A stretch of 64,000 nucleotides of DNA from an uncultured archaeon (GCA_964373665.1 CAYJVM010000002.1:8923-72922), one strand, 5' to 3'. Positions 61,727 through 62,845 are shown, counted from the stretch's first letter. The notes: generated by a model from the letters alone, not told the origin. Made by a program: numbers and translations.

Positions 61727-62014
61727 ATGTCAGAAGAAACAAAATCACCAAATAATGTCATATACATCGGACAAAAGCCTTCAATGGCATACGTTCTGGG
61801 CGTTATGACACAGCTTTCCAGCGGACAGAACCCGGTCTTCGTCAAAGCCAGAGGCAGATCAATCTCCAAGGCAGTCGACGTCGCCGAAATCGTCCGGAAT
61901 AAGTTCTTGAAAGACACTAAAGTCTCGAACATAGAAATTGGCACAGAGGAAAAAGCGCTTGAAAACGGGCAGAAGATCAACATTTCAACCATAAGCATCT
62001 CAATAAGCAAGTGA
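61727..62014 (+). CDS. albA: DNA/RNA-binding protein Alba
   Basis: KARGRSISKAVDVAEIVRNKF conserved Alba core. Confidence 0.9.
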   Translation: MSEETKSPNNVIYIGQKPSMAYVLGVMTQLSSGQNPVFVKARGRSISKAVDVAEIVRNKFLKDTKVSNIEIGTEEKALENGQKINISTISISISK

Positions 62015-62040
62015 CGTTTCCTCCCTTTTTCTTCTTTCTT
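61985..62040 (+). repeat. 56-bp direct repeat copy 1 (Alba 3' end + downstream)
   Basis: tcaaccataagcatctcaataagcaagtgacgtttcctccctttttcttctttctt identical to 62790-62845. Confidence 0.85.
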
Positions 62041-62042
62041 CA

Positions 62043-62477
62043 ATGTTTTTAATGGTGCCAAGTAAAATAACATATATGGCTATTCCAAAGGCAGTGCAAG
62101 AATTCAAGGAAAGGGTGATGAAAGAAGTAAATGGAAAAATAGAGTCTATTGTCCTCTACGGCTCCGTAGCTAGGGGCACGACTACAAAGGACAGCGACAT
62201 TGACATTTTCATACTAACTAAGGAAAATGTCTACAACAAGAAAAACAGCAAGTTACACAGCAAGATATCAGATATAAGAACCGATATTGACCTTGAAAAC
62301 GGAACTCTGACATCAATAGTTTATGTCCCTACAAAAACGTTTTTTAAACGCTATACTTTCGATCCCTTTATAAAGAACGTGATTAAGGACGGTGTAGTTT
62401 TGTATGACAAAGGGAATTTCACAAAAGTTAGTAAAGGAAGTTCTAAGAATAGCGGACGAATCGTTAGAAGAGGCTAA
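62043..62477 (+). CDS. nucleotidyltransferase (MNT)
   Basis: VLYGSVARGTTTKDSDIDIFIL. Confidence 0.8.
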   Translation: MFLMVPSKITYMAIPKAVQEFKERVMKEVNGKIESIVLYGSVARGTTTKDSDIDIFILTKENVYNKKNSKLHSKISDIRTDIDLENGTLTSIVYVPTKTFFKRYTFDPFIKNVIKDGVVLYDKGNFTKVSKGSSKNSGRIVRRG

Positions 62478-62799
62478 GCTTCTGTTAAAAGCCGATAAAT
62501 TAAGAGGCGCCGTATCTAGAGCATACTATGCTATGTTCAATGCGAGTAGAGCTTTGCTTTACAGCAAAGGCATAGAAGCGAAAACTCACAAGGGAGTTAT
62601 GGGCTTGCTTGGAGAAAAGTTCGTTAAAACGAAAGAATTGGACAAATGGTTTTCAAAAGCTATTGGTAATGCATTTGAATTGAGACAAGCGGGCGATTAT
62701 GAAATTGAGGTCGATATTGGTAAGGAAAAAACACAACAGATAATAAACGATGCGGAGAAATTTATTAAAGAAACTAAAGAGTTTCTTGGTCAACCATAA
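62404..62799 (+). CDS. HEPN domain protein
   Basis: helical 131 aa with RxxxxH-type region; overlaps MNT ORF by 74 nt. Confidence 0.65.
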   Translation: MTKGISQKLVKEVLRIADESLEEAKLLLKADKLRGAVSRAYYAMFNASRALLYSKGIEAKTHKGVMGLLGEKFVKTKELDKWFSKAIGNAFELRQAGDYEIEVDIGKEKTQQIINDAEKFIKETKEFLGQP

Positions 62800-62845
62800 G
62801 CATCTCAATAAGCAAGTGACGTTTCCTCCCTTTTTCTTCTTTCTT
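62790..62845 (+). repeat. 56-bp direct repeat copy 2
   Basis: identical to 61985-62040. Confidence 0.85.

Follow-up and report, generated by a model that had tools for sequence, protein, structure and literature searches.

How does a toxin–antitoxin (TA) pair enter a chromosome when no transposase travels with it? Few genes of prokaryotes move horizontally as readily as TA pairs, yet most of their chromosomal copies lie outside recognisable mobile elements. The question is raised in a particular form by the window that we analysed, a stretch of 64,000 nt of DNA from an uncultured archaeon, in which two cassettes of MNT and HEPN-type genes within 64 kb are each bracketed by a long duplication of their own target. 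This locus links TA mobility to the long target duplication of the restriction–modification (RM) type, and it does so in tiny-genome archaea without obvious mobility enzymes. The reading that we favour by a little, from comparison with related loci, is that the cassette between albA and pcm (cassette 2) would be a horizontally acquired MNT-HEPN unit at a reused albA site, placed there through host-repair insertion with long target duplication. The features concerned are collected in Table 1.

Table 1. Features of the two cassettes and their neighbours, in window positions
Feature	Position	Strand	Basis or remark
albA, Alba chromatin/RNA-binding protein, 95 aa	61727..62014	+	Pfam Alba E = 3.6e-20
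Left repeat copy, presumed original target	61985..62040	+	exact match to right copy
CAACCAT microhomology, left repeat edge	61986..61992	+	same heptamer at 62791-62797, HEPN tail
Pyrimidine-rich tract cgtttcctccctttttcttctttctt, 3' of albA	62015..62040	+	kept after albA in every relative, empty sites included
Inserted DNA, 749 bp: MNT promoter region, MNT, HEPN to third-last codon	62041..62789	+	
TATA-like box gtttttaatgg, ~25 nt upstream of MNT start	62045..62055	+	like boxes in relatives
MNT, minimal nucleotidyltransferase, putative antitoxin, 133 aa	62076..62477	+	Pfam Polbeta 6e-14, NTP_transf_2 3e-13
HEPN, putative toxin, 131 aa, PF05168/UPF0332 type	62404..62799	+	Pfam HEPN E = 2.5e-19
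Right repeat copy, duplicated one	62790..62845	+	resident (window/L006) type, not donor (cctttcctc) type
pcm, protein-L-isoaspartate O-methyltransferase, original downstream neighbour of albA	62861..63505	+	Pfam PCMT 2e-63
Cassette 1 left repeat, fossil of first ~12 codons of small gene at 52275	51248..51282	+	
Twin palindromes GATATATTTATATATC and TGATATAATTTTATATCA	51285..51320	+	upstream of wHTH-MNT gene; conserved in L090, L094
Cassette 1 wHTH-MNT, 175 aa	51323..51850	+	Pfam Polbeta/NTP_transf_2 + HTH
Cassette 1 partner, 141 aa, HEPN-like at sub-threshold level	51847..52272	+	contains RNKIVY (R-x4-Y)
Small TM/Cys-rich gene, 99 aa	52275..52574	+	5' end 52276-52310 = cassette 1 right repeat

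The repeat behind albA and its assembly

A sequence-only reading of this DNA had claimed that an exact 56-bp duplication of the albA 3' end brackets an MNT plus HEPN module as an 805-bp unit, with the HEPN stop codon inside the repeat, and both claims hold: the two copies are identical and 805 nt apart from start to start, where the chance expectation for an exact 56-nt pair in 64 kb is about 4e-25, and the TAA of HEPN (62797-62799) lies within the right copy. The left copy comprises the last 27 coding nucleotides of albA, encoding S-T-I-S-I-S-I-S-K, its TGA stop (62012-62014), and a 26-nt pyrimidine-rich tract, which is a probable terminator of the archaeal oligo-T type and whose 3' edge forms the insertion point. 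The right copy supplies the C-terminus of HEPN (QP, the last two codons) and its stop, together with another CT-rich tract, 15 nt ahead of pcm, whose start is the ATG at 62861 and not 62864. The insert has albA, pcm, and tRNA-Trp as neighbours, and the cassette ends carry no terminal inverted repeats, the duplications being 56 and 35 nt long in cassettes 2 and 1, respectively. An Rfam scan of 61500-64000 for a known RNA at the repeat returned only a sub-threshold snoRNA-like match on the opposite strand at the albA start. We rejected the idea of the CT tract as a generic motif that follows many genes, given that its 22-nt core matches the window at these two places alone (up to 3 mismatches allowed; none in 100 shuffles) and that CCTTTCCTC occurs solely after albA or HEPN in the loci of relatives.

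Perfect repeats call for caution with assemblies, and an artefact would here mean that the chromosome reads albA-repeat-pcm, with the cassette being a circle, or the allele of another strain, threaded in through the shared 56-mer. With a repeat longer than k, an integrated cassette and an empty site plus a circle do look the same in the graph, 56 is 55 + 1, which is suspicious given a k=55 assembler, and Logan contigs break at the repeat. We nevertheless find this explanation scarcely credible. The Logan contig L001 (ERR4904390) matches the window without a difference along 6288 nt and ends at 62014, 30 nt into the left copy, which is the graph branch required at k=31 for a repeat starting at 61985, and contig L095 spans exactly 51253-52308, the interval predicted from the 32-nt exact core of the cassette 1 repeat; in this independent k=31 assembly, the repeat has two genuine left and two genuine right contexts. 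Furthermore, the order albA-MNT-HEPN-(small ORF)-pcm was assembled from different samples (L005, L050, L054, L080, L046, L047, and L048), the repeats of these relatives are too diverged to mislead an assembler, an 805-bp replicon without a replication gene is implausible, and HEPN needs the right copy for its stop codon.

The MNT and HEPN genes of the two cassettes

The MNT reading frame of cassette 2 is open from 62043 to 62477, but translation most likely begins at the ATG at 62076, which is conserved in relatives. Its GS-x10-DxD motif (GSVARGTTTKDSDID) is intact and conserved in L005, L046, and L047, three of the related lineages, and its tail is variable, basic, and overlaps HEPN. The best PDB relative of MNT is 9xbd_E, with weak but significant matches to the MntA structures 5yep/6m6u, while HEPN has 9xbd_A, 9xbc_A, and 2hsb as its relatives there. 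HEPN carries L-R94-Q-A-G-D-Y99, that is, R-x4-Y where the canonical motif is R-x4-H, and 9xbd and 9xbc read RNRSDY and RNRSDF at the same place. After the conserved “...FL”, the HEPN tail depends on the lineage (GQP, NKQPW, NK, KE, or KLIK) and, from these sequences, is junction-encoded. Gene callers shorten this overlapping HEPN, the NCBI call being an 88-aa version (P0001) of the 131 aa, and exact-product look-ups gave no match for HEPN, for pcm (from the ATG at 62861), or for MNT (from the upstream ATG at 62043).

The TATA-like box in front of MNT has equivalents in L005, L046, and L047 (ttttaatac/tttaacatt, with a conserved “aaataacatatATG”) and is probably the promoter of the cassette, with a leaderless transcript on which the two co-oriented genes would be transcribed together. 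Retro-insertion of an operon transcript was also considered and was rejected, since the insert has its own upstream promoter-like region.

The overlap of the two genes, 74 nt in cassette 2 (62404-62477) vs. 4 nt in cassette 1 (51847-51850), had been reported with both lengths correct, but the accompanying suggestion of decay or of a frameshift in MNT fails. Long overlaps are a conserved trait of the family (74 nt in L005 with a homologous MNT tail, 44 nt in L046, and 92 nt in L047), the start codon of HEPN falls within LYDKG, a conserved motif of MNT, and a comparison of the window with L005 gives a dN/dS of about 0.08 for both genes. These findings rule out MNT decay, and by this measure, both genes are under purifying selection and would constitute a functional two-gene TA module.

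The closest known counterparts in gene content are the Type VII HepT/MntA pairs of Shewanella (SO_3165/3166), Aphanizomenon, and Legionella (PMC7641770, PMC11586414, PMC13000451), where MNT and then HEPN are likewise adjacent and co-oriented, where MNT has the same intact GS-x10-DxD, and where a conserved Tyr stands next to Arg in HEPN, as with R94/Y99 here. In those systems, AMP is transferred to a Tyr that neighbours the R-phi-xxx-H motif (PMC7641770, PMC11586414, PMC13000451). The present HEPN differs in being of the PF05168/UPF0332 type instead of DUF86 and in reading R94-QAGD-Y99, with Tyr for His, and the genes of the cassette 2 clade overlap by 44–92 nt. By analogy, neutralisation of the HEPN toxin through AMPylation of Y99 by MNT is a putative mode of action.

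Cassette 1, as had been claimed, likewise stands between two copies of a piece of the adjoining gene: the repeat is 35 nt long with 1 mismatch (97%; 51248-51282 and 52276-52310), and the left copy shows a GTG/ATG change plus a 2-nt slip just upstream. The cassette occupies the same site in L090 and L094, with lineage-specific duplications of 35–43 nt, the equivalent fossils being 43 nt and 86% identical in L090 and about 68% identical in L094. The left and the right copy have lineage-specific codons in common, and an older state of the gene survives in the fossil of L090. The small TM/Cys-rich gene starts 2 nt after the stop of the HEPN-like gene, with orthologues at the same position in both relatives. 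The wHTH-MNT family has more than 800 members, many of them in Aenigmatarchaeota, and the twin palindromes upstream of the gene are, from their sequence and conservation, a probable operator. The partner protein has matches below the cut-off to Pfam HEPN (E = 0.03) and HEPN_Swt1 (E = 0.017) and a weak BLASTP match to HEPN2. No empty site for cassette 1 was found among the relatives. Its proteins are 68–74% identical between lineages vs. 35–59% for the syntenic flanks, and given that these flanks are fast-evolving surface proteins, we do not count the contrast as evidence of transfer.

Occupied and empty albA sites in relatives

The same cassette family sits at the identical insertion point in L005/L050/L080, in L046/L049, and in L047/L048, so that at least three other Aenigmatarchaeota-like lineages are occupied at the albA site, each flanked by a decayed copy of the “albA stop + CT tract” (74–91% identical, 20–38 nt). 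Seven lineages (L002, L003, L006, L004, L056, L074, and L078) lack the insert in their orthologous albA-pcm loci and have an empty site with a single copy, these loci belonging to species different from that of the window (Alba 68–75% identical) and not to sibling strains. In all relatives, albA lies directly upstream either of pcm, as in L002, L003, and L006, or of the cassette. The refuting case named in the sequence-only reading, orthologous loci that have the duplication without TA genes, is absent, with 7 of 7 cassette-free loci being single-copy. Across lineages, the repeat is 20–56 nt long; its right edge is constant at the end of the CT tract, and its left edge reaches 0–27 nt into albA, depending on the lineage. 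Searches nearer to the window returned no close relatives of its lineage among GTDB species representatives, which peak at 63% PCM identity, and a metagenome pattern scan permitting the variant of the window gave only the other clade and about 31 unrelated chance matches; neither a same-species empty site nor an older-looking repeat was found.

The history of the cassette is not that of its host. On host trees that are neighbour-joining trees of single short proteins, with most host dS values saturated, occupied and empty hosts are interspersed (PCM 76–78% identical between occupied lineages vs. 78–83% between occupied and empty ones), and the host of the window is an outlier (Alba 70–74% and PCM 59–64% identical to all relatives; dS saturated). 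Its cassette is sister to that of L005 (MNT 81%, HEPN 77% identical), with dS of 1.13 for MNT and 1.62 for HEPN where the host genes are saturated, and with third-position identity of 62–63% vs. 38–44% in host genes. The L005 cassette is itself saturated against those of L046 and L047, though the host dS is ~1.0–1.2. The GC content is 37.0% in cassette 2 and 33% in cassette 1 against 43.1 ± 2.9% in the window ORFs, and the value for cassette 2 matches the 35–37% of the relatives; TA genes are often AT-rich whatever their origin. Cassette and host histories disagree, and we conclude from these comparisons that cassette 2 was acquired horizontally. The proposal of a recurrent insertion mechanism is likewise sustained by the presence of both cassettes at the same sites in diverged relatives with lineage-specific duplications, and also by the empty sites and the incongruent history of cassette 2.

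What, then, is old at this site and what is recent? The left copies of L005 and L046 are similar to one another and to the outgroups (“tctatttc”), and their right copies are alike (“tctctttc”), which argues that the duplication there was inherited and not regenerated; CT-rich sequence is prone to homoplasy. The empty site of L078 is identical to the right copy of L046, and that of L056 has a left-type start and a right-type end. In the window, both copies read cgtttcctccctttttctt, as does the outgroup L006, whereas L005-type donors have cctttcctc, and this comparison shows both window copies to be of resident type. At the left edge, the HEPN tail of L005/L080 likewise reads ...aaaCAACCATggTAA, whereas L005 albA reads TCGACGAT, and the chance of a CAACCAT match at the homologous place is, as a rough estimate, ~5e-4. 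The insertion at the albA site is old and shared; what is recent in the window is confined to the perfect match of its repeat copies and to their additional length.

Such a pattern might also arise from one ancient insertion followed by vertical descent and repeated precise losses, the 56-nt pair of the window being a recent product of gene conversion or SDSA repair, in which the left copy served as template for mending a break close to the 3' end of HEPN, with synthesis running into the albA codons and re-annealing at CAACCAT. The decayed duplications at one insertion point in all occupied lineages, the left-left and right-right similarity of L005 and L046, and the empty sites of L078 and L056, which look like repeat-by-repeat excision products, all speak for it, as do the lineage-specific codons shared by the cassette 1 copies, which concerted evolution would give, and the CAACCAT boundary, which fits microhomology-terminated repair equally well. 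We hold it to be rather doubtful, as it leaves unexplained the closeness of the window and L005 cassettes (dS 1.1–1.6) beside saturated hosts, the saturation of the L005 cassette against L046/L047 with hosts at dS ~1, and the low cassette GC, while resident-type repeat copies beside a foreign-type cassette still demand at least one horizontal event under gene conversion. The perfect identity of the window repeat could equally have come from gene conversion after an older insertion.

Proposed route of insertion and comparison with known systems

If cassette 2 entered by insertion with long target duplication, cassette DNA from an unsampled relative of lower GC would have arrived with its own old flanking albA-end/CT copies. 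Judging by the junctions, its left end would pair with the resident CT tract, and its right end, the HEPN tail ...CAACCAT, would pair by 7–8 nt with the resident albA codons TCA ACC AT; the microhomology at the left junction is just these 7–8 nt. Since such pairing would be ends-in and 56 nt apart, RadA, whose gene is present, and gap-filling synthesis would copy the resident 56 nt on both sides and leave a perfect duplication. Nothing would be broken in the process: albA would retain its end and terminator, the duplicated albA piece would give HEPN its last two codons and its stop, and the second CT tract would end cassette transcription before pcm. From established TA biology, recombination between the repeats may excise the cassette precisely, the patchy occupancy would follow from such losses, and the addictive property of the module would select against cassette losers. 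Cassette 1, which lies in the 5' end of the gene for a small membrane protein and has a 35-nt duplication, would follow the same logic.

Homology-facilitated illegitimate recombination and ends-in recombination with gap repair are familiar from bacterial transformation and yeast integration, and to our knowledge, they have never been shown in DPANN archaea. The likeness lies in the CT-tract anchor at one end, the CAACCAT microhomology at the other, and a gap filled from the recipient; the difference is that the anchor here is ~26 nt of imperfect homology and that the bacterial outcome is usually replacement or deletion.

Enzymatic routes were weighed against the Pfam scan of the window ORFs, in which neither the insert nor its surroundings encode an integrase, a Cas1, or a transposase. 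The sole transposon in the 64 kb is an IS200/IS605 TnpA/TnpB pair at 47.7–49.3 kb, 13 kb away, of a family that inserts without target duplication. A recombinase acting in trans was considered and rejected, as the scan of the 64-kb window shows IS200/IS605 only. Integrative elements (phages, plasmids, and ICEs, with the archaeal SSV/pNOB8-type) resemble the albA locus in having identical repeats that include a host gene 3' end, an intact gene, and a reused site, and on integration, they often leave a second copy of the 3' part of a tRNA gene (PMC2853133). The cassette plus one repeat might thus be a non-autonomous element of this kind, with the albA end and CT tract as its att site, the repeats as attL/attR, an 805-bp circle, and a recombinase encoded elsewhere, and this would suit the use of one insertion point by cassettes that are not vertically related, the retention of the CT tract over large distances even at empty sites, and repeats over a gene 3' end. 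It is unlikely, however, because no recombinase is found in the insert, beside it, or in the 64-kb window, the repeat length and left boundary vary (20–56 nt), the window boundary is a microhomology and not a fixed core, inverted-repeat arm sites are absent, and the unrelated target of cassette 1 would need a second att specificity; an insert of only 749 bp also sets the cassette apart from integrative elements.

Staggered cuts 56 (and 35) nt apart by a transposase or a Cas1-like integrase, followed by fill-in, would make the repeats true target-site duplications, in keeping with a repeat that is perfect and made of resident sequence and with two cassettes so flanked in one window. We judge this very unlikely: no such enzyme is in or near the cassettes, terminal inverted repeats are missing, the nearby IS200/IS605 makes no duplication, and the CAACCAT and “QP” shared with the L005 HEPN tail would be coincidence. 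Prokaryotic target-site duplications are also much shorter, typically <10 bp and 19–26 bp for IS1630 (PMC2853133). Integron cassettes, too, are small, promoter-poor, TA-carrying units placed at a fixed position behind a conserved gene, as here, but our locus has no IntI, no integrase, no array, and no attC-like imperfect palindrome in a scan of the window, the 3' flank of the cassette being a pure pyrimidine tract and the flanks being duplicated host sequence.

The favoured insertion with long target duplication has its nearest precedent in RM units, which insert with unique direct repeats of >30 bp, sometimes overlapping the 3' end of a neighbour, and without mobility genes (PMC2853133; also Nobusato et al. 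2000, Gene 259:99). There, as in the MNT-HEPN cassettes, a small selfish or addiction unit without transposase or integrase has deviant GC and is flanked by repeats (46–423 bp, compared with 56 and 35 bp here) that align to a single copy at the empty site in relatives; in H. influenzae, the repeat overlaps 15 bp of the HI0105 3' end, where here it is the albA 3' end, and the mechanism is thought to involve host break repair (PMC2853133). Flanking repeats >30 bp, an empty site, a repeat that is not multicopy, no mobility gene, and an insert <20 kb, all named by Furuta et al. 2010, are found here, with MNT plus HEPN in the place of their RM cargo. The differences are that the cargo is a TA pair, so that no cargo-encoded DNA-cutting activity is available to make the break; that the host is a DPANN archaeon, when the screen of PMC2853133 kept no archaeal case; that several lineages have, at one and the same site, cassettes not related by vertical descent; and that one junction is a microhomology and the toxin takes its stop from the duplication. 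The cassette works like the class of Furuta et al. but is not one of its described members, and our literature search found no report of insertion with long target duplication for TA modules or for archaea.

In a practical sense, assemblies break or are mis-threaded at cassettes of this kind when the perfect repeats around them exceed the k-mer of the assembler. In a wider sense, we propose, only tentatively, that MNT-HEPN cassettes in DPANN archaea may be enzyme-less mobile elements, which would carry a copy of a conserved host gene end or terminator as a portable homology arm, exit via their flanking repeats, pass from lineage to lineage, re-insert at that same conserved sequence by host recombination and repair with a fresh long duplication, and be guarded by their toxin against deletion. 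Under this hypothesis, junction reads from circles or empty sites are predicted, TA pairs across the genome should have more flanking repeats than expected, and the process should depend on host recombination. If it is true, the “virus-like life cycle” proposed for RM units (PMC2853133) would extend to TA modules and to archaea, and there would be a concrete answer to how TA modules move without transposases.

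The duplicated albA end and its two genes

Between albA and pcm (which encodes PCM), the sequence-only reading had described an exact 56-bp repeat of the albA end bracketing an MNT (putative antitoxin) and a HEPN (putative toxin) gene, with the HEPN stop inside the repeat and a gene overlap of 74 nt, and all of this was confirmed, the gene identities by Pfam. The two copies are spaced 805 nt apart, against a chance expectation of ~4e-25 for such pairs, and the insert, named cassette 2, contains MNT and HEPN only. The left copy consists of the final nine albA codons with the TGA stop, followed by 26 nt of pyrimidine sequence (CT tract), whose 22-nt core has 2 matches in the window at <=3 mismatches and 0 in 100 shuffles. 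Independent assembly supports these repeats and also those of cassette 1, a wHTH-MNT/HEPN-like pair: Logan contig L001, identical to the window over 6288 nt, ends at 62014, the k=31 branch point expected for a repeat beginning at 61985, and L095 covers exactly 51253-52308, the interval predicted from the 32-nt exact core of the cassette 1 repeat.

The NCBI call of the window HEPN (P0001) has only 88 aa and begins at an internal Met, apparently avoiding the overlap with MNT, and the intact MNT of L047/L048 is missing from gene calls. Directly downstream of pcm lies a tRNA-Trp(CCA) gene, interrupted after position 37 by an intron of 35 nt; default ARAGORN and Rfam missed it, and it was detected only in ARAGORN intron mode.

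Coordinates of features in the window and, where a contig is named, in relatives' loci
Feature	Position	Basis or remark
Alba	61727-62014	Pfam
12-nt-period direct repeat, albA 3' end	61994-62011	ATAAGCAtctcaATAAGCA
56-nt repeat, left / right	61985-62040 / 62790-62845	exact
CT tract	62015-62040	
MNT nucleotidyltransferase	ATG 62076	Pfam; start conserved in relatives
HEPN	62404-62799	Pfam; stop 62797-62799
PCMT (pcm)	ATG 62861	Pfam; comparison with relatives
tRNA-Trp(CCA)	63508-63613 (-)	
Small pilin-like ORFs	L005 1164-2064; L046 5446-5727; L047 1169-1447; L004 3691-3963	
Cassette 1	51323-52272	
Cassette 1 repeats	51248-51282 / 52276-52310	
Twin palindromes	51285-51320; L090 ~3950-4000; L094 ~3660-3709	
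37-nt repeat	L094 2600-2636 and 3763-3799	78%
ParE/YafQ-like pair	L090 35-544	weak
IS200/IS605 element	47744-49279 (+)	
Pilus or surface-structure locus	40479-60654	
Small Cys-rich ORFs	49332-49664; 52275-52574	class-III-signal-peptide-like N-termini
488-aa repeat protein	49723-51189	
Glycosylation and polysaccharide cluster	1-26499	

Occupied and empty albA sites

The best PCM matches come from Aenigmatarchaeota (DPANN) MAGs (61-63% identical), and a HEPN search of 5.8 billion proteins returned the 88-aa call of the window itself and four informative close relatives with identities of 64-75%, the next being at 45%; all the close ones are located between albA and pcm. When loci found by scanning metagenomes for the "stop + CT tract" pattern are included, the occupied sites are the window, L005 (= L050 = L054, with L080 from the same population), L046 (with L049), and L047 (= L048 = L070), and the empty ones read albA-CT-pcm (L002, L003, L006) or albA-CT-small pilin-like ORF-pcm (L004, L056, L074, L078).

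Immediately 3' of the albA stop, a pyrimidine-rich tract is present in all lineages, occupied and empty alike, and motif scans showed that it does not recur as a general feature of these genomes. Every cassette starts at the tract's 3' edge and is followed by a second "stop + CT tract" copy and then by the original downstream sequence again. The two flanking copies share 74-91% identity over 20-38 nt in the relatives, and only in the window do they reach 100% over 56 nt, extending 27 nt into albA; the right copy of L047/L048, however, retains a slipped, shortened form (ATAAGCAAGTAACC) of the 12-nt-period repeat of the albA end, which suggests that the ancestral duplication there also extended into albA. 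Given that the HEPN tail past the conserved "...FL" varies by lineage (GQP, NKQPW, NK, KE, KLIK), and that the duplicated albA stop serves as the HEPN stop in L046 and L049, the C-terminus of the putative toxin is encoded by the junction.

The CT tract, made up of pyrimidines only, is kept in L002-L006, L046, L047, L056, L074, and L078, where Alba is only 68-75% identical to that of the window, a conservation that, from these sequences, is unusually strong for non-coding DNA in these genomes; presumably it serves as the albA terminator or as a 3' UTR element. Between the albA site and pcm, relatives have one or two small ORFs of a pilin-like type (MRKAVAVPYVIALILG...), which in L005 form a tandem pair with a common 106-nt repeat (79%) and which the window, L002, L003, and L006 lack at this place; the family also adjoins cassette 1 in the window.

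Origin of the repeat and movement of the cassette

In the window, both copies carry the resident-type sequence (cgtttcctccctttttctt, as in the outgroup L006), not the cctttcctc flanking L005-like cassettes, so DNA of the window lineage itself either was the source of the duplication or overwrote it; with 0 differences in 56 nt, the duplication is far more recent than the divergence of this cassette from that of L005. At its left edge, TCAACCAT, the repeat coincides with a CAACCAT that is also present in the HEPN tail of L005 and L080, whose own albA reads TCGACGAT at this position; this match points to a microhomology-guided joint. We favour, from the junction sequences, an ends-in insertion, in which the incoming cassette would pair on the left via its own CT tract and on the right via CAACCAT, and gap filling would copy the intervening 56 resident bases twice. 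The close rival holds that a break was repaired later by SDSA, with the left repeat as the template for the right one and the copying ended at the same CAACCAT. In L005 and L046, the left copies resemble each other and so do the right copies, which suggests that the duplication there was inherited and not remade, and hence both insertion and later repair may operate. The empty site L078 matches the right copy of L046 exactly, and the empty site L056 has a left-type start and a right-type end; they look like repeat-by-repeat excision products, weakly so in such low-complexity sequence.

The window is an outlier among the hosts (Alba 70-74% and PCM 59-64% to all relatives, dS saturated; among L005, L046, and L047, 86-90%, 76-78%, and dS 0.5-1.6), though its cassette is sister to that of L005: MNT is 81% and HEPN 77% identical, with dS of 1.13 and 1.62 and third-position identity of 62-63% vs. 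38-44% in host genes. Between L005 and both L046 and L047, host dS is ~1.0-1.2 and cassette dS is saturated, and occupied hosts are no closer to one another than to empty ones. GC is 37.0% in cassette 2 and 33.1% in cassette 1 vs. 43.1 +/- 2.9% in 49 window ORFs, resembling the relatives' 35-37%. On these comparisons, cassette 2 is a horizontally moved unit. The overlap had been taken as a hint of decay, wrongly, since the window and L005 have in common both its length of 74 nt and homologous tails of MNT, and a dN/dS of ~0.08 indicates that both genes are maintained.

Cassette 1 and the class of mobility

The first cassette was likewise said to be bracketed by a duplicated piece of its neighbour, and this was borne out. 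Its wHTH-MNT family, with >800 proteins, is common in Aenigmatarchaeota, and in the nearest relatives, L090 and L094, the cassette has the same location, ending 0-2 nt before the orthologous gene for the small membrane protein; a fossil of the first ~12 codons of that gene precedes the MNT operator palindromes in all three. Left and right repeats are 34/35 identical in the window, 86% over 43 nt in L090, and ~68% in L094; they agree on the lineage-specific codon 8 (CAG, CAA, or GAA), and the L090 fossil keeps a Met codon absent from its live gene. The similarity of the 141-aa partner to HEPN stays below threshold.

The twin palindromes (GATATAnnTTTATATC), which immediately precede the wHTH-MNT start in the three lineages and are conserved among them, are likely an autoregulatory operator. 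The L094 37-nt repeat, between the wHTH-MNT 5' part and a spot 1.1 kb upstream, may be left over from a further copy of MNT, and the L090 ParE/YafQ-like pair lies 3.5 kb upstream of cassette 1. The surrounding locus, syntenic in L090 and L094, encodes a T2SSE-type ATPase, T2SSF-like membrane, LysM, and SLT-like proteins, an M23 peptidase, a 1044-aa CarboxypepD_reg protein, and the small Cys-rich ORFs. The secreted-looking 488-aa protein has three to four internal repeats of ~112-120 aa and no Pfam match, and neither L090 nor L094 has an equivalent. The large cluster at the window's start includes UDP-sugar dehydrogenases, epimerases, glycosyltransferases, a carbamoyltransferase, asparagine synthase, FkbM methyltransferases, a flippase-like protein, and AglB/STT3.

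Cassette 2 has no terminal inverted repeats, and neither an integrase nor Cas1 turned up when the window was scanned with Pfam; the host recombinase RadA is present, and the one transposon is the IS200/IS605 element, of a family that is not known to duplicate its target on insertion. This element, within the type-IV-pilus-like locus, has a 132-aa Y1 TnpA (Pfam 2e-37) and a 378-aa TnpB (OrfB_IS605 with a Cas12f1-like TNB domain). Across the window and ~58 kb of relatives' loci, strong gene-bracketing direct repeats occur only around these cassettes.

Like type VII HepT/MntA, cassette 2 has an intact MNT motif and a HEPN Tyr adjoining a conserved Arg, but it departs from two defining features of those modules: its HEPN is of the PF05168 type and has R-x4-Y instead of R-phi-xxx-H. 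In genomic placement it matches the "insertion with long target duplication" of bacterial restriction-modification (RM) units, with unique repeats >30 bp that sometimes overlap the 3' end of a neighbour, no mobility genes, and empty sites in relatives (PMC2853133). That screen retained no archaeal case (PMC2853133), a review comparing RM and TA systems mentions the mode for RM only (PMC3874152), and in an incomplete coverage of the literature no paper came up that describes it for TA modules. The proposal of a recurrent insertion process is supported and sharpened by a reused albA site and two cassettes with flanking duplications. The insertion mechanism is inferred from the junction sequences, and these cassettes are best filed under a known but poorly understood kind of gene mobility, in which the TA cargo, the archaeal host, and the reused site are new.
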